A DNA stretch of 14,617 nucleotides. It comes from Candidatus Latescibacterota bacterium. Its GTDB lineage: Bacteria > Latescibacterota > UBA2968 > UBA8231. Both the position numbers and the translations under genes were made by a program. Location: contig CBDETY010000001.1 in NCBI GenBank assembly GCA_965243025.1, positions 1 through 14,617 on the forward strand, read 5' to 3'. Numbering within the stretch: the first letter of the stretch is position 1; each line of letters begins with the position of its first letter. This document shows positions 1,102 to 10,515 of this stretch, piece by piece. The notes under the pieces are model-generated. The model searched no databases. It had not been told where the DNA came from and saw only the letters and a program-made list of their open reading frames with translations.

Positions 1102-1677
1102 TCACCTCAACCCTCTGCGCCGTCTTTTCTTTTTCGCCCCGGCCTCCAGCGGCGCGCGCATCTTCTTGTAGAGCATGAAAAGATGCTCTACACGTTCACG
1201 CTCCGAAGCGAAGCCGCCAGGCCGGTACAGCCGGTCCACCGCCCGGTCGAGGTCGTTATGGGCCTTGCGCAGATCGGGCGGCATCTGGTTGGGGTTGTAC
1301 AGGTCGGCCAGGGTCACACCGGTATGGGTGGCACGGGCGTTGAGCACAGCTTGGGCCAGCGATTCCAGTTTTGCCAGCTTCTCACCTTGGGGCGGCAGGG
1401 GGAAGGTATTATAGACGACGCCAACAGAGTACATGTAATCGCTCTTCATTCGTCCCGTCACGGTACGCATCCACGCCATATGCATGGCAGAGGTAAGAAG
1501 CGCGAAATCAGTGAGGGTGGCCTGCAACTCCTGGGCGTCCTTGTCCAACTCGGCCGCAAATTGGGTCAGCAGCCGGACGATCTCCTCGGGGGGGAGGAGG
1601 CGCACCAAGTCCGCCAGGTACTCCAAGCTCACCTCGCCCTGGTCATCCGCCACGATCTGAATCAGGACCTGCCCCAT
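1102..1677 (-). CDS. Protein with MmeI-family (type IIL RM) C-terminal region and an unrelated ~52-aa N-terminus, 191 aa
   Basis: Motifs TSAMHMAWMRTVTGRMKSDYMYS..VYNTFPLP, TLADLYNPNQMPPDLRKAHNDLDRAVDRLY and ERVEHLFMLY are typical of the end of MmeI-like enzymes. GAGGAGG RBS lies 5 nt before the ATG. Confidence 0.88.
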   Translation of the reverse strand: MGQVLIQIVADDQGEVSLEYLADLVRLLPPEEIVRLLTQFAAELDKDAQELQATLTDFALLTSAMHMAWMRTVTGRMKSDYMYSVGVVYNTFPLPPQGEKLAKLESLAQAVLNARATHTGVTLADLYNPNQMPPDLRKAHNDLDRAVDRLYRPGGFASERERVEHLFMLYKKMRAPLEAGAKKKRRRRGLR

Positions 1678-1699: not shown

Positions 1700-2146
1700 T
1701 CACGGTTGGGCCGGCGCGGTGCGTTCGATCAGGGTCTGCAAAGCGTCGCCTTGTTGGCGTAAAGCGTCGCCTTGTTGGCGAAAGGCGTCGCCCTGCTGCC
1801 GTAAGGCTTCCATCGTGGCCTCGTGCTGCTCGCGGCTGGCGGTGGCTTGGAGGCGTAAGGCGTCGAGCGTGGCCTCGTGCTGCTCGCGGCTGGCGATGGC
1901 TTGGAGGCGTAAGGCGTCCATCGCTTCGGCGTGGCGTTGCGCCTCCGCCTGGGCCTGGGCGCGGGTTTGCTGCTCGCGGCTCGTATTGCTCCGGTACATC
2001 AGCCCCAGCCCGACCGTGAGCAGCACGAGTTGCCCCAGCCCGACCCCCAAGGCGACCCACGCCAGCGGGGTCATGCCTGCCGGTGGGACCAGTGCCTGTA
2101 AGGCGGCCAGGGTGGCCGCACCCAGTTCGATAGTTTGACTCTCCAT
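1700..2146 (-). CDS. Hypothetical membrane-anchored coiled-coil repeat protein, 148 aa
   Basis: Hydrophobic segment LAWVALGVGLGQLVLLTVGLGLM is followed by an A/Q/E/R-rich helix with in-frame 18-aa and 7-aa repeats. Co-oriented between rep and the MmeI-C gene. The RBS is weak. Confidence 0.8.
   Translation of the reverse strand: MESQTIELGAATLAALQALVPPAGMTPLAWVALGVGLGQLVLLTVGLGLMYRSNTSREQQTRAQAQAEAQRHAEAMDALRLQAIASREQHEATLDALRLQATASREQHEATMEALRQQGDAFRQQGDALRQQGDALQTLIERTAPAQP
1740..1921. repeat. Intragenic tandem repeats: 3 x 21 bp (1740-1802) and 2 x 54 bp (1814-1921); also at +4988 and +9976
   Basis: 21-bp units aaagcgtcgccttgttggcgt / aaagcgtcgccttgttggcga / aaggcgtcgccctgctgccgt. cgtggcctcgtgctgctcgcggctggc occurs at 1814 and 1868. 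Confidence 0.92.
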
Positions 2147-2252
2147 AGGTCGCTCTTTAGCACAAATCCGGCCAGAATCGGGCGAAAATCAAAATTCAAA
2201 ATTCGGGAGTAGGCCAGGACCTAATTTTCAATCACTTTTCAGGAGCCGGGAA

Positions 2253-2287
2253 GGGCACACATCCTGCTTTGGTTCGGTTTACACCCC
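2253..2287 (-). promoter_or_regulatory. Candidate ColE2-like replication origin overlapping the rep stop codon (also 7241-7275, 12229-12263)
   Basis: ColE2-family origins lie immediately 3' of rep. The minus strand reads GGTGTAAACCGAACCAAAGCAGGATGTGTGCCC, loosely similar to the ColE2 ori end as I recall it (CCTTATCAGATAACAGCGCC). Confidence 0.45.
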
Positions 2288-3244
2288 TCGCCGCACGATC
2301 TTGGACACGGCCATTGCTGACAGACCATAGACACGCGCCGTCGCCCGCATGGACTCGCCCGCTTGCACGGCCGCTACGATTGCCGCGTCTCGGTCGGCCG
2401 TGCGTTCCCGCCGCGCCTGGCCGGATTTCTTGCCCCGTGCCGCCTGGATGAACGAGAACGTCCGCTGCGTCTGCCCGCTCTGCAAGTTCTTGGACTGAAT
2501 CCGCCGAATGCTCTTGACGATCCCGCCTAGCTCCCGTTCCCCCAGCGGCAGGACAAATTCCGCGTTCAGGGCCGCCAGGTACGTCGCCAGGCCGGCCCAG
2601 TCGCCCCAATGCGCCGGCCGACCCGTCCACTTCATCCCCGCCCGGAACAGCGCATCGTTCCGCCCATACACCGTCAGCGGCCGCCGAGGCCGACGCCACC
2701 CAAACGGGATCGACTCGCCCAGCTCGGCTAGGGTGTACGGCTCCTGGCGCAGCCAGTCCGTCCGGTAGCGCCCCTGACTGGCCCACTCCAGGGGGTTGTG
2801 AGCCAGTACCGCAGGGTACGCCAGGTCTGCGTGCAGCGTGGCCGCCAGATATTCCCCAACACGAGCCAGCCACCCCTGCGGTGTCGGCCGCGCTTCCTCA
2901 CCCCGCAGCACCGGCCGGGCCAGGGCGTAGACCAGGTGGGCGTGCTGATTCGCCCGCCGCCACGTCGCCCAGTTCGGGACCGGCACCACCCCATCGAAAA
3001 TCTCCAGCCCCCAGTCGGGCCGATCTACGTCGAAAATCAGCGCCGGGATGCTGTTGGCTGTCCGCCCGAGTTCCAGTTCGGGATGGGTCCAGGCTTCCGC
3101 CGGCGGCATCCGCCGGGAGCCGAGCCAGATCCCTGCCGCGTTCTTGCCATAGGACGCCAGCGGATAGTGATGAAATTCGCGCAGGCCGTAGCGCCGGACC
3201 TGGCGCGGGACAAAGTCGATACCGGGTAATATGAGCTGCTGCAT
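2279..3244 (-). CDS. rep: ColE2-type plasmid replication initiator (replicase/primase + PriCT-like region + C-terminal HTH), 321 aa
   Basis: Replicase motifs LIFDVDRP, PVPNW and HAHLVYAL; GRNDALF ... PLGERELGGIVKSI (PriCT-like); ARGKKSGQARR; C-terminal HTH (GESMRATARVYGLSAMAVSKIV). G-rich RBS upstream. Confidence 0.93.
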   Translation of the reverse strand: MQQLILPGIDFVPRQVRRYGLREFHHYPLASYGKNAAGIWLGSRRMPPAEAWTHPELELGRTANSIPALIFDVDRPDWGLEIFDGVVPVPNWATWRRANQHAHLVYALARPVLRGEEARPTPQGWLARVGEYLAATLHADLAYPAVLAHNPLEWASQGRYRTDWLRQEPYTLAELGESIPFGWRRPRRPLTVYGRNDALFRAGMKWTGRPAHWGDWAGLATYLAALNAEFVLPLGERELGGIVKSIRRIQSKNLQSGQTQRTFSFIQAARGKKSGQARRERTADRDAAIVAAVQAGESMRATARVYGLSAMAVSKIVRRGV

Positions 3245-3280
3245 GGGCCGCCCCTCCCCTCATCGGTCGGGGGATGGGAC

Positions 3281-3309
3281 TTGAGCAGCGGGGGGAGGTA
3301 GGGTAGGGT
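3281..3309 (+). promoter_or_regulatory. Putative sigma70-type promoter for an antisense RNA in the rep leader
   Basis: TTGAGC (3281-3286), 17-bp spacer, TAGGGT (3304-3309), pointing at a two-hairpin region that ends in a T-rich tract. Confidence 0.45.
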
Positions 3310-3314
3310 TTCCT

Positions 3315-3398
3315 ACGCGTGAAGCTGCCCGGTCCCATCCGGGTTGTCTGTTCGAGAAAGCCCCTTGGATTAGAGCCGTGGGGCTTTCGCTCTTTTGT
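3315..3398 (+). ncRNA. Putative ~85-nt antisense copy-number control RNA, RNAI-like (also ~8303-8386, ~13291-13374)
   Basis: Antisense to the rep 5' leader. Hairpin cccgg/ccggg (3328-3343), then hairpin gaaagcccc/ggggctttc (3356-3388) and gctcttttgtt. ColE2 plasmids use antisense control in this position. Confidence 0.55.
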
Positions 3399-3399
3399 T
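3356..3399 (+). terminator. Intrinsic terminator-like hairpin
   Basis: 9-bp perfect stem gaaagcccc/ggggctttc followed by a T-rich tail. Confidence 0.6.
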
Positions 3400-3681
3400 C
3401 CCCGGCATTATGCCACGTCCCGCCCTTTTCGCCACCAGCGCGCCGGCGTAAACCCCTGTTGTTTGGTGAGGGTCTAGGTAAGGGCCGAGCCGATTACGGC
3501 CGTCTGCGGCCCTGTATGGCGGTCGGATTCCGCCGGCGCGGCCGATCTGCCCCGCTGTGGCCCGAAAACGGCCCGTAGCGACGCAAACGGCCACAGACGG
3601 CCTTGGGACGGCTTTGGGGGCCTGGGCGAGCCACAGGGGCCGCCCACGGCCTCCGCAGCGGGCTGTCCGGGCGGGAGAATA

Positions 3682-4221
3682 CTAGCACGGCGGCCCGCCG
3701 GCGAGCGGGGCGAGAGCGGGGTCGGGCGCGGCTCGCTTGCGCGGCCGACCACGCCGGCGGGCGGGGGGACGGGCTGGCAGGAAATCTGCATCCTCCAAGT
3801 CGAAGGGCGAGGACAGGCCCGCTTCTTCGCATAAGGGCACAATGGCCCGGTGGCACGCCGCCCGCACAGCGGTCTGGTACGTGGCCTGCACGACCTCGAA
3901 CTGTGCTCGGGCGGCGTCGATGACCTGGCGCAGATCAGCCGGCGCGACTTGCTCCCCCCGGTGGATCGACCGCACGAGCATGTTGAGATTGCGCCCGATC
4001 GCGTTCATCTCCCGGCTCAGCCGGCGCAGCTCGATCTTGTCGTCATCGAAGAAATCCGGCCCGCCTGTGACGGCTTCCCGGATCAGCCGCCGGATCAGCC
4101 GGCTGGGCGGCTCCTGTACCTGGTCCGCAATCCGCCGCAGCGCCGCCGCTTCTTGCTCTCGGAGCCGTACCCCGTAGACAATCGACCGCGCTGCACGTGG
4201 TTCAAGCTTGGGTCGTGCCAT
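3682..4221 (-). CDS. mobC: NikA/MobC-like relaxosome accessory protein (RHH + MobC motif), 179 aa from ATG at 4221
   Basis: RHH-like YGVRLREQEAAALRRIADQVQEPPSRLIRRLI and MobC motif LSREMNAIGRNLNMLVR. GAGGAGG RBS (4229-4235) precedes ATG 4221. Adjacent to the oriT-like site. Confidence 0.85.
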   Translation of the reverse strand: MARPKLEPRAARSIVYGVRLREQEAAALRRIADQVQEPPSRLIRRLIREAVTGGPDFFDDDKIELRRLSREMNAIGRNLNMLVRSIHRGEQVAPADLRQVIDAARAQFEVVQATYQTAVRAACHRAIVPLCEEAGLSSPFDLEDADFLPARPPARRRGRPRKRAAPDPALAPLAGGPPC

Positions 4222-4344
4222 CCGTTGACCTCCTCGAAACGGCCAGCCTGGGCCGAGCCTCGCTGGCGCCCGCCTGCCCCGGCTCTCACCCTCGGTAGTG
4301 CGAGCTGAAGGACTTGCCGGCCCTGGCCGGGCGGCGAAGCCGGA

Positions 4345-4380
4345 GCAATCGTTTTTGTACAACAGATTGCATATCCTGCC
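4345..4380 (+). other. MOBP-type origin of transfer (oriT); predicted nic between 4378 and 4379
   Basis: Inverted repeat GCAATC(4345-4350)...GATTGC(4365-4370) is directly followed by ATATCCTG^C. This matches the MOBP nic consensus YATCCTG^Y and the R64 arrangement ATTGCACATCCTG^T. It lies upstream of mobC. Confidence 0.8.
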
Positions 4381-4570
4381 TCACAATAATTCCCCACACT
4401 GAACCACTCTCCGAACTACTCCGCCGCGAACCAGCCAGCAAAAGACGCGGCAAGGACACCAGCCCCGAAGTATAGCCCACAATTGGCCCAAAAGCAGGGC
4501 ACAAGAGGGGCGACCGAGGGTGGAAGCAGCCAACCGAGGACGGAAGCGGTCAAGGTCTGGACTGGCCGAC

Positions 4571-4630
4571 CCGTACCGACAGAATCAGACCCACACCGAC
4601 AGCGGCCAGTCCACACCGACAGAGCCGGGC
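4571..4630 (+). repeat. Three iteron-like direct repeats with 20-bp period (also 9559-9618, 14547-14606)
   Basis: ccgtaccgacag (4571), ccacaccgacag (4591), ccacaccgacag (4611). Confidence 0.8.
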
Positions 4631-4696
4631 AGCTCACGGCTGGAAAGGTTTGTCAAAGTTGGTGTAAAGATAAGGAAAATCAGGAGCTTGCCTGGT

Positions 4697-4756
4697 TTTG
4701 GTCCAGACGGTGAACCGAACATTGATCCGGGCGTTGGTCCGGGTGTTGAACCAGGA
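4697..4756 (+). repeat. Five degenerate 12-bp tandem units just upstream of the HTH-MbeB start (also 9685-9744)
   Basis: tttggtccagac ggtgaaccgaac attgatccgggc gttggtccgggt gttgaaccagga; consensus nnTGRWCCRRRn. Confidence 0.65.
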
Positions 4757-4765
4757 GGGGCCGGA

Positions 4766-5527
4766 ATGAATCGCAAACAAGCCGAGCACGATAGGACCGT
4801 CCTCCCCCGGATTCAAGCGCTGCTGGCCCAGGGCCGGAGTCGGCGGGAGATCGCCGAGCAGCTGCAACACGACGGCGTCCCCACGGCGCGGCGGGGCGGG
4901 AAATGGACACACATTGCGGTCGGGCGCATCTTGGCCCGCGCGGAGCGGACGCAGCCCGAGGAGGCCAGCCCGATGGCCGCCCAGGCTGACCCACCCCCAG
5001 CGCCAGCGGAGCCGCCGGCCAGCCCAGCGCCAGCGGAGCCGCCGGCCAGCCCAGCGCCAGCGCGCCAGAAGAGTGAGGCCCAGACCCAGGTCCAGCACGA
5101 GGCCGCGCTACAACAGCTGAGCACGAGCTATCAGGGGGCGATGAAACGCGAGCTGGGGAGCATTGCGAGCGTGACGGCGCAGGAGGCCAAGGTCGTACGG
5201 AAAGTCGTCGTCCGGCTGTGGTTCTGGTTCGCGGTCGGCGGGGTGCTGCTGATCGGGAGCTTGACCCTGGGCACCTGGGGACTCGCTGCGGGGCTGACGG
5301 CCAGCATCGACAGCAAGCTGAAAGAGCGGGCCACGCTCACGCGGGAGATTGCGCAGCAGCAAGCGACGCTGCGCGAGCTGGAGAAAGAAACCTGGGGCGT
5401 GGGCTTTCATGACACGACGGGCGGCAAGTACATCACGTGGCCGGGCCACTACCGGCCGCCGTTCAAGGGCAAGGAGTCGGATCCGGTGTATGCGGGCAAA
5501 TGGGTGGCGAAACTCGCCGAGGAGTGA
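4766..5527 (+). CDS. Fusion of a serine-recombinase-type DNA-binding domain, Pro/Ala linker and MbeB/MobB-like TM-coiled-coil C-terminus, 253 aa
   Basis: N-terminal GRSRREIAEQLQHDGVPTARRGGKWTHIAVGRIL resembles the recombinase DNA-binding motif. TM helix LWFWFAVGGVLLIGSLTLGTWGLA. C-terminal EIAQQQATLRELEKETWGVGFHDTTGGKYITWP resembles the MbeB C-terminus as I recall it (TLQKLNAKTWGVEF...KFLVLP). AGGAGG precedes ATG 4766. Confidence 0.82.
   Translation: MNRKQAEHDRTVLPRIQALLAQGRSRREIAEQLQHDGVPTARRGGKWTHIAVGRILARAERTQPEEASPMAAQADPPPAPAEPPASPAPAEPPASPAPARQKSEAQTQVQHEAALQQLSTSYQGAMKRELGSIASVTAQEAKVVRKVVVRLWFWFAVGGVLLIGSLTLGTWGLAAGLTASIDSKLKERATLTREIAQQQATLRELEKETWGVGFHDTTGGKYITWPGHYRPPFKGKESDPVYAGKWVAKLAEE
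4997..5062 (+). repeat. 27-bp tandem repeat (~2.4 copies) encoding a PAPAEPPAS linker (also 119-184, 9985-10050)
   Basis: ccagcgccagcggagccgccggccagc at 4997 and 5024, partial at 5051. Confidence 0.92.
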
Positions 5528-5883
5528 GGGCCTGGCCCTTCCCGCCTTTCCCCTTGTCAACCGGGGGCGAAGGGGTCAGCCGGCGGCCAGAGTCTGACCG
5601 GACGCCCCTCGGCCGGGGAGTGCCGGAGGACAGCCAGGGCCTTGACTGGCTCCCGCACGGCACGGACGGCCGCTGCCTGCCAGGCTCCCGCTGCCTGCAA
5701 CCCCGCCGCCCGCTTGTCCGCGCCGGGCCTTGGCGGCGCGTCCGAGCGGCCGCCCTCCGGTCCAAACTGAACAATCTTCGGCTGTTTGGCCGTTTGACCC
5801 GCGATTTGTTCAGCCGCGCTGGGTGAGCCTCGGCCCGTAAGTCCCTGATTTTCCTGAACTCGGCCTCGGCCGCTGCGTCCGCA

Positions 5884-5911
5884 GTGTCTGATAACGCGCA
5901 ATGTGTCAACT
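5884..5911 (+). other. dif/psi-like XerC/XerD recombination site (11-6-11)
   Basis: GTGTCTGATAA-CGCGCA-ATGTGTCAACT versus E. coli dif GGTGCGCATAA-TGTATA-TTATGTTAAAT. It keeps the inner ATAA of the XerC arm, a 6-bp spacer and TGTcAAcT of the XerD arm. Intergenic and AT-richer than its surroundings. Confidence 0.6.
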
Positions 5912-5929
5912 TTGAGAAAGAGGGTAGGA

Positions 5930-5962
5930 CCGTGCTCAGTGGGCAGGGGGGGGTGAGCACGG
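5930..5962. repeat. 9-bp perfect inverted repeat, possible terminator of the minus-strand operon (also 942-974, 10918-10950)
   Basis: ccgtgctca-N15-tgagcacgg, downstream of the MmeI-C gene. The minus-strand tail is pyrimidine-rich but not a clean U-tract. Confidence 0.4.
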
Positions 5963-6089
5963 CCCCGAGGGAAAGAGAGAGTCCCGTCAGGCTACACAGC
6001 CAAGGCGGCGGATGCAAACCAGCCGGGCCGTGACGCAGGCGAGATGGAGCCTCAGCGCTGCTCGACAATCCACCCCGTACCTAAATCGA

Positions 6090-6665
6090 TCACCTCAACC
6101 CTCTGCGCCGTCTTTTCTTTTTCGCCCCGGCCTCCAGCGGCGCGCGCATCTTCTTGTAGAGCATGAAAAGATGCTCTACACGTTCACGCTCCGAAGCGAA
6201 GCCGCCAGGCCGGTACAGCCGGTCCACCGCCCGGTCGAGGTCGTTATGGGCCTTGCGCAGATCGGGCGGCATCTGGTTGGGGTTGTACAGGTCGGCCAGG
6301 GTCACACCGGTATGGGTGGCACGGGCGTTGAGCACAGCTTGGGCCAGCGATTCCAGTTTTGCCAGCTTCTCACCTTGGGGCGGCAGGGGGAAGGTATTAT
6401 AGACGACGCCAACAGAGTACATGTAATCGCTCTTCATTCGTCCCGTCACGGTACGCATCCACGCCATATGCATGGCAGAGGTAAGAAGCGCGAAATCAGT
6501 GAGGGTGGCCTGCAACTCCTGGGCGTCCTTGTCCAACTCGGCCGCAAATTGGGTCAGCAGCCGGACGATCTCCTCGGGGGGGAGGAGGCGCACCAAGTCC
6601 GCCAGGTACTCCAAGCTCACCTCGCCCTGGTCATCCGCCACGATCTGAATCAGGACCTGCCCCAT
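6090..6665 (-). CDS. MmeI-family C-terminal domain protein (copy B)
   Basis: Same translation as 1102-1677. Confidence 0.88.
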   Translation of the reverse strand: MGQVLIQIVADDQGEVSLEYLADLVRLLPPEEIVRLLTQFAAELDKDAQELQATLTDFALLTSAMHMAWMRTVTGRMKSDYMYSVGVVYNTFPLPPQGEKLAKLESLAQAVLNARATHTGVTLADLYNPNQMPPDLRKAHNDLDRAVDRLYRPGGFASERERVEHLFMLYKKMRAPLEAGAKKKRRRRGLR

Positions 6666-7266: not shown

Positions 7267-8232
7267 TTACACCCCTCGCCGCACGATCTTGGACACGGCC
7301 ATTGCTGACAGACCATAGACACGCGCCGTCGCCCGCATGGACTCGCCCGCTTGCACGGCCGCTACGATTGCCGCGTCTCGGTCGGCCGTGCGTTCCCGCC
7401 GCGCCTGGCCGGATTTCTTGCCCCGTGCCGCCTGGATGAACGAGAACGTCCGCTGCGTCTGCCCGCTCTGCAAGTTCTTGGACTGAATCCGCCGAATGCT
7501 CTTGACGATCCCGCCTAGCTCCCGTTCCCCCAGCGGCAGGACAAATTCCGCGTTCAGGGCCGCCAGGTACGTCGCCAGGCCGGCCCAGTCGCCCCAATGC
7601 GCCGGCCGACCCGTCCACTTCATCCCCGCCCGGAACAGCGCATCGTTCCGCCCATACACCGTCAGCGGCCGCCGAGGCCGACGCCACCCAAACGGGATCG
7701 ACTCGCCCAGCTCGGCTAGGGTGTACGGCTCCTGGCGCAGCCAGTCCGTCCGGTAGCGCCCCTGACTGGCCCACTCCAGGGGGTTGTGAGCCAGTACCGC
7801 AGGGTACGCCAGGTCTGCGTGCAGCGTGGCCGCCAGATATTCCCCAACACGAGCCAGCCACCCCTGCGGTGTCGGCCGCGCTTCCTCACCCCGCAGCACC
7901 GGCCGGGCCAGGGCGTAGACCAGGTGGGCGTGCTGATTCGCCCGCCGCCACGTCGCCCAGTTCGGGACCGGCACCACCCCATCGAAAATCTCCAGCCCCC
8001 AGTCGGGCCGATCTACGTCGAAAATCAGCGCCGGGATGCTGTTGGCTGTCCGCCCGAGTTCCAGTTCGGGATGGGTCCAGGCTTCCGCCGGCGGCATCCG
8101 CCGGGAGCCGAGCCAGATCCCTGCCGCGTTCTTGCCATAGGACGCCAGCGGATAGTGATGAAATTCGCGCAGGCCGTAGCGCCGGACCTGGCGCGGGACA
8201 AAGTCGATACCGGGTAATATGAGCTGCTGCAT
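7267..8232 (-). CDS. rep: ColE2-type replication initiator (copy B)
   Basis: Same translation as 2279-3244. Confidence 0.93.
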   Translation of the reverse strand: MQQLILPGIDFVPRQVRRYGLREFHHYPLASYGKNAAGIWLGSRRMPPAEAWTHPELELGRTANSIPALIFDVDRPDWGLEIFDGVVPVPNWATWRRANQHAHLVYALARPVLRGEEARPTPQGWLARVGEYLAATLHADLAYPAVLAHNPLEWASQGRYRTDWLRQEPYTLAELGESIPFGWRRPRRPLTVYGRNDALFRAGMKWTGRPAHWGDWAGLATYLAALNAEFVLPLGERELGGIVKSIRRIQSKNLQSGQTQRTFSFIQAARGKKSGQARRERTADRDAAIVAAVQAGESMRATARVYGLSAMAVSKIVRRGV

Positions 8233-8669
8233 GGGCCGCCCCTCCCCTCATCGGTCGGGGGATGGGACTTGAGCAGCGGGGGGAGGTAGGGTAGGGTTTC
8301 CTACGCGTGAAGCTGCCCGGTCCCATCCGGGTTGTCTGTTCGAGAAAGCCCCTTGGATTAGAGCCGTGGGGCTTTCGCTCTTTTGTTCCCCGGCATTATG
8401 CCACGTCCCGCCCTTTTCGCCACCAGCGCGCCGGCGTAAACCCCTGTTGTTTGGTGAGGGTCTAGGTAAGGGCCGAGCCGATTACGGCCGTCTGCGGCCC
8501 TGTATGGCGGTCGGATTCCGCCGGCGCGGCCGATCTGCCCCGCTGTGGCCCGAAAACGGCCCGTAGCGACGCAAACGGCCACAGACGGCCTTGGGACGGC
8601 TTTGGGGGCCTGGGCGAGCCACAGGGGCCGCCCACGGCCTCCGCAGCGGGCTGTCCGGGCGGGAGAATA

Positions 8670-9209
8670 CTAGCACGGCGGCCCGCCGGCGAGCGGGGCG
8701 AGAGCGGGGTCGGGCGCGGCTCGCTTGCGCGGCCGACCACGCCGGCGGGCGGGGGGACGGGCTGGCAGGAAATCTGCATCCTCCAAGTCGAAGGGCGAGG
8801 ACAGGCCCGCTTCTTCGCATAAGGGCACAATGGCCCGGTGGCACGCCGCCCGCACAGCGGTCTGGTACGTGGCCTGCACGACCTCGAACTGTGCTCGGGC
8901 GGCGTCGATGACCTGGCGCAGATCAGCCGGCGCGACTTGCTCCCCCCGGTGGATCGACCGCACGAGCATGTTGAGATTGCGCCCGATCGCGTTCATCTCC
9001 CGGCTCAGCCGGCGCAGCTCGATCTTGTCGTCATCGAAGAAATCCGGCCCGCCTGTGACGGCTTCCCGGATCAGCCGCCGGATCAGCCGGCTGGGCGGCT
9101 CCTGTACCTGGTCCGCAATCCGCCGCAGCGCCGCCGCTTCTTGCTCTCGGAGCCGTACCCCGTAGACAATCGACCGCGCTGCACGTGGTTCAAGCTTGGG
9201 TCGTGCCAT
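8670..9209 (-). CDS. mobC: NikA/MobC-like protein (copy B)
   Basis: Same as 3682-4221. Confidence 0.85.
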   Translation of the reverse strand: MARPKLEPRAARSIVYGVRLREQEAAALRRIADQVQEPPSRLIRRLIREAVTGGPDFFDDDKIELRRLSREMNAIGRNLNMLVRSIHRGEQVAPADLRQVIDAARAQFEVVQATYQTAVRAACHRAIVPLCEEAGLSSPFDLEDADFLPARPPARRRGRPRKRAAPDPALAPLAGGPPC

Positions 9210-9332
9210 CCGTTGACCTCCTCGAAACGGCCAGCCTGGGCCGAGCCTCGCTGGCGCCCGCCTGCCCCGGCTCTCACCCTCGGTAGTGCGAGCTGAAGGA
9301 CTTGCCGGCCCTGGCCGGGCGGCGAAGCCGGA

Positions 9333-9368
9333 GCAATCGTTTTTGTACAACAGATTGCATATCCTGCC
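9333..9368 (+). other. oriT (copy B)
   Basis: Same sequence as 4345-4380. Confidence 0.8.
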
Positions 9369-9753
9369 TCACAATAATTCCCCACACTGAACCACTCTCC
9401 GAACTACTCCGCCGCGAACCAGCCAGCAAAAGACGCGGCAAGGACACCAGCCCCGAAGTATAGCCCACAATTGGCCCAAAAGCAGGGCACAAGAGGGGCG
9501 ACCGAGGGTGGAAGCAGCCAACCGAGGACGGAAGCGGTCAAGGTCTGGACTGGCCGACCCGTACCGACAGAATCAGACCCACACCGACAGCGGCCAGTCC
9601 ACACCGACAGAGCCGGGCAGCTCACGGCTGGAAAGGTTTGTCAAAGTTGGTGTAAAGATAAGGAAAATCAGGAGCTTGCCTGGTTTTGGTCCAGACGGTG
9701 AACCGAACATTGATCCGGGCGTTGGTCCGGGTGTTGAACCAGGAGGGGCCGGA

Positions 9754-10515
9754 ATGAATCGCAAACAAGCCGAGCACGATAGGACCGTCCTCCCCCGGAT
9801 TCAAGCGCTGCTGGCCCAGGGCCGGAGTCGGCGGGAGATCGCCGAGCAGCTGCAACACGACGGCGTCCCCACGGCGCGGCGGGGCGGGAAATGGACACAC
9901 ATTGCGGTCGGGCGCATCTTGGCCCGCGCGGAGCGGACGCAGCCCGAGGAGGCCAGCCCGATGGCCGCCCAGGCTGACCCACCCCCAGCGCCAGCGGAGC
10001 CGCCGGCCAGCCCAGCGCCAGCGGAGCCGCCGGCCAGCCCAGCGCCAGCGCGCCAGAAGAGTGAGGCCCAGACCCAGGTCCAGCACGAGGCCGCGCTACA
10101 ACAGCTGAGCACGAGCTATCAGGGGGCGATGAAACGCGAGCTGGGGAGCATTGCGAGCGTGACGGCGCAGGAGGCCAAGGTCGTACGGAAAGTCGTCGTC
10201 CGGCTGTGGTTCTGGTTCGCGGTCGGCGGGGTGCTGCTGATCGGGAGCTTGACCCTGGGCACCTGGGGACTCGCTGCGGGGCTGACGGCCAGCATCGACA
10301 GCAAGCTGAAAGAGCGGGCCACGCTCACGCGGGAGATTGCGCAGCAGCAAGCGACGCTGCGCGAGCTGGAGAAAGAAACCTGGGGCGTGGGCTTTCATGA
10401 CACGACGGGCGGCAAGTACATCACGTGGCCGGGCCACTACCGGCCGCCGTTCAAGGGCAAGGAGTCGGATCCGGTGTATGCGGGCAAATGGGTGGCGAAA
10501 CTCGCCGAGGAGTGA
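9754..10515 (+). CDS. HTH-MbeB-like fusion protein (second intact copy)
   Basis: Same as 4766-5527. Confidence 0.82.
   Translation: MNRKQAEHDRTVLPRIQALLAQGRSRREIAEQLQHDGVPTARRGGKWTHIAVGRILARAERTQPEEASPMAAQADPPPAPAEPPASPAPAEPPASPAPARQKSEAQTQVQHEAALQQLSTSYQGAMKRELGSIASVTAQEAKVVRKVVVRLWFWFAVGGVLLIGSLTLGTWGLAAGLTASIDSKLKERATLTREIAQQQATLRELEKETWGVGFHDTTGGKYITWPGHYRPPFKGKESDPVYAGKWVAKLAEE

Follow-up and report, generated by a model that had tools for sequence, protein, structure and literature searches.

The stretch of DNA analysed here (14,617 nucleotides, called the window below) is contig C1 (CBDETY010000001.1) of an assembly assigned to Candidatus Latescibacterota (GCA_965243025.1), and it consists of a small plasmid repeated head to tail. 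On the plus strand of this plasmid lies a gene for a protein, P0001, that appears to join a helix-turn-helix (HTH) domain of the type found in serine recombinases to a mobilization accessory protein of the MbeB/MobB type. The joining of these two modules is what is new here; the MbeB kind of protein is itself already known. The gene of the fusion protein is transcribed divergently from a gene for a ribbon-helix-helix (RHH) protein, P0182, and the 544 bp between the two contain three features: a nearly invariant core and two sets of repeats. The replication gene, a gene for a second membrane protein, the remnant of a restriction-modification enzyme, and a conserved non-coding region make up the rest of the features that we located (Table 1).

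Table 1. Positions in the window of the genes, protein segments and DNA features under discussion (aa, amino acids; ORF, open reading frame; SD, Shine-Dalgarno sequence; TM, transmembrane; TRD, target recognition domain; oriT, origin of transfer; AF2, AlphaFold2; pLDDT, predicted local distance difference test)
Feature	Position	Strand	Basis
MmeI-type enzyme remnant, 191 aa (end of TRD and C domain)	1102-1677	-	ORF list, Pfam
Membrane protein with tandem repeats, 148 aa	1700-2146	-	ORF list, Pfam, repeat search
Plasmid replication protein (Rep), 321 aa, Replicase family with C-terminal HTH	2279-3244	-	PF03090, E 9.2e-19; gene also in L006
MobC/NikA-type RHH accessory protein P0182, 179 aa (putative)	3682-4221	-	PF21983, E 2.6e-4; NCBIfam DDP1, E 3.2e-7
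Nearly invariant non-coding core, candidate oriT and/or promoter region	~4411-4501	.	Alignment with L006
Three ACCGACAG direct repeats, 20-bp spacing	4575-4622	+	Divergent intergenic region
Five TGRWCC repeats, 12-bp period, candidate operator/binding array	4699-4752	+	Abuts ribosome-binding site
SD, AGGAGG	4753-4758	+	Read from sequence; 7 nt ahead of ATG 4766
HTH-MbeB fusion protein P0001, 253 aa	4766-5527	+	33 homologues at E <= 0.01; start conserved
Three-helix HTH, residues 1-62, serine-recombinase "Recombinase" type, presumed cytoplasmic and DNA-binding	4766-4951	+	PF07508, AF2
Pro/Ala linker, residues 63-100, length variable in the family	4952-5065	+	Composition, pLDDT, alignment indels
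27-nt tandem duplication encoding PAPAEPPAS twice	4996-5062	+	Repeat families D5, D9
Helical/coiled-coil segment, residues 101-150, equivalent to N-terminal part of stand-alone MbeB-like proteins	5066-5215	+	hhalign, low-confidence model
Single TM segment, residues 151-179	5216-5302	+	Kyte-Doolittle, alignment with ColE1 MbeB
Coiled coil and TWGV domain, residues 180-253 (TWGV at 5390-5401), predicted periplasmic	5303-5524	+	Homology to ColE1 MbeB C-terminus
Non-coding region 3' of the fusion gene	5528-5979	.	Most conserved backbone stretch

The two modules of the fusion protein

A search of 5.8 billion clustered proteins returned 33 proteins at E <= 0.01, all of them metagenomic and none of them named. 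Thirty of these make up the family alignment A1 (P0013, P0015 and P0033, which are partial or of odd length, were omitted), and its members are 47-88% identical to the fusion protein. The ORF translates to 253 aa and a stop codon, and its start position (M-N/T-x-K/P...) is common to all 29 homologues aligned with the fusion protein. A longer, GTG-started reading from position 4520 (335 aa) was rejected, because every homologue starts at the ATG and because the 12-nt periodicity upstream has a contiguous conserved core of 6-7 nt, which is typical of binding sites and not of codons.

A preliminary description, made from the sequence without database searches, had divided the protein into a basic N-terminal motif, a repeat-expanded Pro/Ala linker, a helical region, one TM helix, a coiled coil and a TWGV motif, and we recovered each of these parts. 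The motif GRSRREIAEQLQHDGVPTARRGGKWTHIAVGRIL is present, and residues 1-62 contain 13 lysines and arginines against 6 aspartates and glutamates. An AF2 model computed on the family alignment has helices at residues 3-21, 26-35 and 49-60, in a block with pLDDT values of 84-95, followed by a disordered stretch (pLDDT below 50 at residues 64-106) and then by a long helix (residues 104-209) and a small beta unit, both of low confidence. The linker, which has 14 prolines and 12 alanines in its 38 residues, corresponds to the indel-rich columns 79-115 of the alignment and contains an exact 27-nt duplication (4996-5022 and 5023-5049) that is followed by 13 nt of a third copy. There is only one hydrophobic segment, with a Kyte-Doolittle maximum of 1.89 at residues 147-165; in the alignment with ColE1 MbeB it falls on the hydrophobic segment of that protein, and residues 151-179 are uncharged. 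The flanks of the segment have net charges of +3 on the N-terminal side and +1 on the C-terminal side, which mildly favours an N-in orientation. The residues of the TWGV motif (T209, W210, G211 and V212) are invariant in all 30 family members.

Conservation within the family is highest in the first ~60 residues, and their earlier assignment to a recombinase-type DNA-binding domain was borne out by profile, model and relatives alike. The Recombinase profile PF07508 matched residues 14-57 with E 3e-4 and a score of 21.5 bits, just above the cut-off of 21.1, and the match spans profile positions 8-50 of 102; at the lax limit of E <= 10 the profile matched all 30 members of the family (best E 3.1e-6). 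A structure prediction for residues 1-63 alone, close to the check on residues 1-60 proposed in the preliminary description, gave a confident three-helix fold (pLDDT 82.9). When 1.84 billion representatives were searched exhaustively with phmmer, many proteins proved to match residues ~1-60 alone, and ten proteins with such a match were scanned for domains. P0106, P0073 and P0168 carry a Resolvase catalytic domain together with one to six copies of the HTH unit, in agreement with the earlier statement that the motif normally accompanies the catalytic domain of a serine recombinase. As that statement also held, the catalytic domain is absent from the fusion protein, which begins with the HTH at residue 1 and has no match to PF00239 at E <= 1. 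P0046, P0086 and P0100 are tandem arrays of the HTH unit that also match PF20552 (HTH_62, "Recombinase-like HTH"), a profile to which the fusion protein has no match at E <= 10. In P0040, P0041, P0042, P0052 and P0057, the same HTH is joined to unrelated C-termini. P0046, P0073, P0086, P0100 and P0168 have an unusual repeat architecture, in which the recombinase-type HTH occurs four to six times in tandem, with or without Resolvase.

These matches point to the DNA-binding "Recombinase" subdomain HTH of serine recombinases as the likely identity of the N-terminal domain. The fusion protein shares with PF07508 and PF20552 the motif G-x-S-x-R-x-IA-x-x-L...G-V/I-P-T...W...V-x-R-I-L and the three-helix fold. 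It differs from the serine recombinases in having neither Resolvase nor the zinc ribbon and only half of the PF07508 profile, and its HTH sits on a membrane protein, whereas theirs sits on an enzyme.

When the profile of the domain was compared with solved structures, the best match was to residues 206-244 of the SPbeta large serine recombinase YokA, with a weak E of 0.094. Foldseek searches of the PDB, one with the full model and one with the model of the domain, gave no match at E <= 0.001; the top rows for the domain, none of them significant, were DNA-bound HTHs (query TM-scores of 0.45-0.60), including those of the Bxb1 and PhiC31 integrases, an IS transposase and a phage small terminase. 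The profile of the whole family matched only coiled-coil or low-complexity rows among solved structures (best E 0.0064), the NCBIfam scan of the fusion protein returned only low-complexity rows far below the cut-offs, and the ESM Atlas had no usable match for it. The non-significance of all of the structural matches, and the restriction of the PF07508 coverage to less than half of the profile, would suit a domain that binds protein instead of DNA and that brings, for example, a recombinase or relaxase of the host or of a helper to the MbeB module in the membrane. We give this idea little credence. The domain is basic, by sequence it is related to the units with which serine recombinases bind DNA and to proteins made of tandem Recombinase-like HTHs, and the nearest structural rows are DNA-bound HTH domains.

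The C-terminal part of the fusion protein was compared with MbeB of ColE1 (172 aa; NC_001371, 2868-3386), both directly and through a bridge. BLASTP aligned residues 157-237 with residues 93-166 of MbeB, which cover the TM helix and the TWGV region (E 6e-7), and hhalign of the family profile A1 with ColE1 MbeB gave a probability of 94.9%. The bridge was A3, an alignment of 55 stand-alone proteins (152-274 aa) whose matches in the phmmer search were confined to query residues ~100-233 (matches to the C-terminal half shorter than 150 aa and a few others were omitted). In hhalign comparisons, columns 97-260 of A1 aligned with columns 21-165 of A3 (probability 99.9%, E 5.9e-36), and A3 in turn aligned with residues 8-155 of the 172 residues of ColE1 MbeB (probability 99.0%, E 3.9e-18). 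This direct and bridged homology agrees with the MbeB-like membrane anchor of the preliminary description, and it argues that residues ~99-253 represent a complete MbeB-type protein, in front of which the HTH and the linker were added.

The bridging proteins are common on mobilizable plasmids. P0059 and P0036 match 1,653 and 128 plasmids in PLSDB, respectively, mostly from Enterobacteria, and 1,638 and 125 of these plasmids are typed as mobilizable; the matched features are annotated as "MbeB family mobilization protein" (25 of 50 among the matches listed). The statement that MbeB ordinarily has no such DNA-binding domain held for these proteins as well, as none was found in the 55 stand-alone proteins or in the MbeB proteins annotated in PLSDB. 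The fusion protein and ColE1 MbeB have the same succession of a coiled coil, one hydrophobic helix, a coiled coil and a tail with the pattern TWGV...F/Y-I/L...P...WV-x-L-x-E, and in both cases a MobC-type RHH accessory gene adjoins. Against these likenesses, the fusion protein has 100 extra N-terminal residues (HTH and Pro/Ala linker) and no match to the MbeB_N profile PF04837; its gene is not nested in a relaxase gene, and its plasmid is one without a detected relaxase. Its host lineage is also far from Enterobacteria, and relatives of the fusion occur in metagenome-assembled genomes (MAGs) of Candidatus Binatia.

Distribution and variants of the family

The preliminary description regarded the fusion as unusual, and our searches agree that the architecture is not that of a common annotated family: the 33 proteins are unnamed, and only three clusters among the best 150 rows of the phmmer search (P0003, P0028 and P0044) span both halves. 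P0044 is a distant fusion of full architecture (238 aa, 35% identity). Among 168 genomes of the host phylum, the full-length form was found in the genome of the window only, while three genomes had a match of the C-terminal type alone and three had a match of the N-terminal type alone; loci L012 to L014 are N-terminal-only matches. Among 185,579 species genomes, the sole full-length relative (49% identity) is encoded in a Candidatus Binatia MAG, on a contig of 18,261 bp that is a concatemer of an 8.3-kb plasmid. PLSDB gave no match by tblastn with the protein or by megablast with the 4,988-bp unit of the window, and nothing was found in metagenome contigs with the family profile or with a 24-nt stretch of the conserved core.

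The related 8.3-kb plasmid (L006) has the same backbone, with genes for a 951-aa MmeI-type enzyme, Rep, the RHH protein and the fusion protein, and its DNA is 76-89% identical to the window across the common parts.

The 30 family members divide into two C-terminal subtypes. Subtype one (20 members) ends in ...ITWPGHY...YAGKWVAKLAEE, and subtype two (9 members), which is closer to canonical MbeB, ends in ...GRFLILPE...VKLPDK; one member is truncated. Contigs of subtype two diverge from the window at position 5405 in the same samples, and several related plasmid variants in these samples have blocks of the region in common. The presence of a nearly identical HTH on the two C-terminal subtypes, together with the branching at 5405, points to modular recombination among co-resident plasmids. 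Because the same conserved HTH is joined to two divergent C-terminal subtypes and also to the unrelated C-termini described above, we propose that it may serve as a portable DNA-address module.

Mobilization context and possible roles

The RHH neighbour P0182 matched both PF21983 and the NCBIfam model DDP1 with scores below their cut-offs, and it contains the motif IGRNLNMLVR. Among its 67 homologues, precomputed matches to PF21983 were present in 32, to PF05713 in 4, and to both in 2; a G-R-N-L-N-Q-L motif is conserved across these homologues, with M in place of Q in P0182. By sequence, P0182 belongs to the MobC/NikA accessory family. A complex prediction for residues 1-140 of the RHH protein and residues 1-150 of the fusion protein scored 0.00 against a mark of 0.32, a result that is uninformative either way.

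No relaxase was found to go with these two accessory genes. A six-frame search of the whole host assembly, including the plasmid, gave no match to the relaxase families PF03432, PF03389 and PF08751, and the 7 ORFs scanned on the 8.3-kb relative included no relaxase. The fusion gene has no long overlapping ORF on the plus strand and is thus not nested. In contrast to this arrangement, the stand-alone mbeB-like ORFs were nested out of frame in a relaxase gene at all three of the interpretable loci. In ColE1 (L001), mbeB is inside a 533-aa ORF (2132-3733); on a plasmid of the cyanobacterium Chondrocystis (L019), a 176-aa ORF (4917-5447) is inside an 829-aa relaxase-Toprim gene (4175-6664), downstream of a NikA/MobC gene; and in genome G009, from the host's phylum, a chromosomal remnant (L016) has the ORF at 8112-8612 inside that at 7777-9531. 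The overlapping mbeB/relaxase arrangement seems to be old and widespread. The nested mbeB-like ORF of the Chondrocystis plasmid lacks an annotation.

We tentatively favour the reading that the fusion protein is a mobilization accessory protein that is anchored in the membrane, binds DNA and tethers its plasmid to the inner membrane, and we put its chance of being correct at a little below even. As we envisage it, the fusion protein would be a bitopic inner-membrane protein with a cytoplasmic HTH, a flexible linker, a cytoplasmic coil, one TM helix, and a coil and TWGV domain on the outside. The HTH would bind the plasmid's own DNA in the 544-bp region and would hold the plasmid, or a complex of oriT and accessory proteins, at the inner membrane, the usual site of action of the MbeB module. 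The link to DNA that canonical MbeB would gain through the product of the enclosing relaxase gene would in this way be built into the fusion protein, and the relaxase and the transfer channel would be supplied by another element. The preliminary description had suggested a tether to the membrane or the coupling protein, replacing the contact normally made through the relaxase, or a role in segregation; either would be consistent with the context, because no relaxase was found, the neighbour is of the MobC/NikA type and conserved repeat arrays lie upstream.

The features of the 544-bp region provide candidate sites for such binding. The TGRWCC pattern has 11 matches in the window where 0.02 are expected, with four overlapping matches in the array ahead of the fusion gene, and a five-repeat array is found at the same place in L006 (5933-5986). 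The sequence ACCGACAG has 9 matches in the window (three per unit) against 0.39 expected; only one copy was seen in L006. The core at 4411-4501 is common to the co-occurring plasmid variants, as contig depth is approximately doubled there and loose ends occur at 4413 and 4501. Binding at the array next to the ribosome-binding site would probably autoregulate the fusion gene.

The position of this array would also fit a purely regulatory reading. In ToxR and CadC, a DNA-binding domain at the cytoplasmic N-terminus is followed by one TM helix and then by an outside domain; with its predicted topology, the fusion protein would have the same domain order. It could accordingly be a membrane-bound transcription factor of this kind, in which the HTH controls plasmid promoters, including its own, and the outside domain senses a signal from the envelope or from mating, with no holding of DNA for transfer. 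The TGRWCC array abuts the SD, its position is conserved in L006, and transfer machinery was not found in the host assembly, all of which this reading would accommodate. However, the fusion protein has a different DNA-binding fold (there was no match to an OmpR-type winged-helix Pfam family at E <= 1), its outside part comes from a family almost confined to mobilizable plasmids, and its gene is on a plasmid beside a MobC/NikA relaxosome accessory gene; moreover, the C-terminal part, for which the model is of low confidence, has no known signal or sensor fold. We consider a ToxR-like regulator unlikely, but worth keeping in mind.

Alternatively, the fusion protein might be a maintenance device that fastens copies of the plasmid, or the origin, to the membrane in segregation or replication control, with the MbeB module serving only as the anchor. 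No other partition gene was present among the scanned ORFs of the 4,988-bp unit, no relaxase or type IV secretion system (T4SS) was found, and the fusion gene is part of the backbone that the window shares with the 8.3-kb relative, together with Rep. Small plasmids, however, often need no active partition, the protein has no similarity to partition protein families in Pfam or NCBIfam, and the invariance of TWGV in 30 of 30 members would be needless in a bare anchor. We regard a role in maintenance as improbable, somewhat more so than one in regulation.

ColE1 genes beside mbeB are annotated as "MbeD family mobilization/exclusion", Exc1 and Exc2, which raises the question of whether the fusion protein acts in entry exclusion or transfer interference, the outside MbeB-type domain blocking incoming related plasmids and the HTH serving for autoregulation only. 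The predicted outside location of the TWGV domain would fit such a role, as would the co-occurrence of several related plasmid variants in the same samples. Yet the other small membrane protein of the plasmid (148 aa) has no similarity to MbeD, and MbeB is called a part of the relaxosome, not an exclusion protein, in the accessible parts of PMC3447787 and PMC5935869. We think exclusion very improbable.

Several points weigh against the tethering reading that we favour. The main point against active transfer in this host is the absence of T4SS parts: the host assembly (6.8 Mb in three contigs; completeness 96.17%, contamination 6.02%) has no detectable relaxase of the three families, VirB4 (PF03135) or type IV coupling protein (PF02534), and nothing in it appears able to mobilize the plasmid. 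The RHH protein and Rep would be equally good candidates for binding the repeat arrays. At the protein level, the PF07508 match of the fusion protein is marginal, neither Foldseek search gave a significant match, and the model of the C-terminal domain is of low confidence (pLDDT 43-65). PF04837 has no match (E <= 10) in the fusion protein, and it is not among the 25 families most often matched across the 30 family members; its silence says little, because the model spans only residues 1-52 of ColE1 MbeB (which itself matches with E 3.6e-22), and only 1 of the 55 proteins in A3 has the domain. The rule that mbeB-like ORFs are nested rests on three loci only, because at L017 and L018, chromosomal loci with partial MbeB-like matches, scans of 4 and 5 neighbouring ORFs, respectively, revealed no relaxase. 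Finally, the function of MbeB is itself little defined: in the accessible parts of PMC3447787 and PMC5935869, MbeB is named in one of the two papers as a part of the relaxosome, and its role is described no further. In the openly accessible literature, we found nothing on the mechanism of MbeB or on an HTH-MbeB fusion.

The tethering reading also has a parallel. Plasmids that carry only an oriT, or an oriT and accessory genes, are mobilized by a relaxase acting in trans, and, like them, the plasmid described here combines an accessory gene of the mobilization type with a conserved non-coding core and lacks a relaxase gene. It differs in that its oriT is only a candidate and that the host assembly showed no helper element. 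A membrane-anchored, DNA-binding protein of the MbeB type is not known to be part of trans-mobilized plasmid systems.

If the HTH binds DNA it must be cytoplasmic, and with a single TM helix the coil of the MbeB module would then be inside and TWGV outside. We predict the same topology for the MbeB family as a whole, with the N-terminal coil in the cytoplasm near plasmid DNA and the TWGV domain outside the inner membrane. A bolder extension is that MbeB proteins are inner-membrane docking factors, in which the coil contacts the relaxosome and TWGV contacts the periplasmic side of the channel, and that the fusion presents a plasmid with an oriT and a MobC-type protein to a foreign relaxase and T4SS. 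We would not expect this to prove right, but if it did, the module would represent a previously undescribed class of relaxase-less mobilization module, and the fusion would be a "Rosetta stone" for the MbeB/MobB family. The finding matters: MbeB/MobB proteins occur on thousands of small mobilizable plasmids, their role is barely described, and the fusion yields predictions about this widespread family that can be tested. In addition, a plasmid lineage in an uncultured group keeps two putative mobilization accessory genes without a relaxase, which bears on how relaxase-less plasmids move.

The replicon and its other genes

The window contains about 2.9 head-to-tail copies of a 4,988-bp unit. 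The ORF list is periodic at 4,988 bp, and from base 925 onward its sequence recurs exactly at offsets of 4,988 and 9,976 within the window; the replicon is therefore a small circular plasmid, with 66% G+C, that was assembled as a concatemer. The concatemer is either an assembly artefact of circular molecules or a product of true multimers. Because of this structure, the fusion gene is present again, in an identical second copy, at 9754-10515, and a damaged partial copy occupies positions 1-570.

The first partial copy of the unit (1-924) differs from both full copies. It lacks 76 bp (equivalent to 5379-5454), with loss of the part encoding TWGV and a shift of the frame, it has one additional base at 618, and it lacks a further 35 bp (equivalent to 5878-5912). 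These differences probably reflect an error at the contig end or a minor variant. The intact form of the gene is found in contigs from four public runs (two studies), which span 5033-5634 with zero differences from the window; their support for this form is limited, because the best-matching run may be the source sample itself. No junction skipping 5379-5454 was reported in the contigs of the public runs, from which rare variants are dropped, and no RNA run was listed among the public runs that carry the region.

The region from 5506 to 5979 is the best conserved part of the backbone (88.8% identity to L006), and its non-coding portion, 5528-5979, is possibly the replication origin. A search of the 4,988-bp unit against Rfam gave no match at E <= 0.1.

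The 191-aa protein covers only the end of the TRD and the C-terminal domain of an MmeI-type restriction-modification enzyme, whereas the full-length 951-aa gene is present on the 8.3-kb plasmid (L006, 117-2972). The plasmid in the window therefore looks like a deletion derivative. The 148-aa protein has one hydrophobic helix, and it gave no family match and no alignment with ColE1 MbeD. Its gene contains tandem repeats of 21-nt and 54-nt units, and the protein shares 72% identity with a 119-aa homologue, encoded by the related plasmid, that has fewer repeats.

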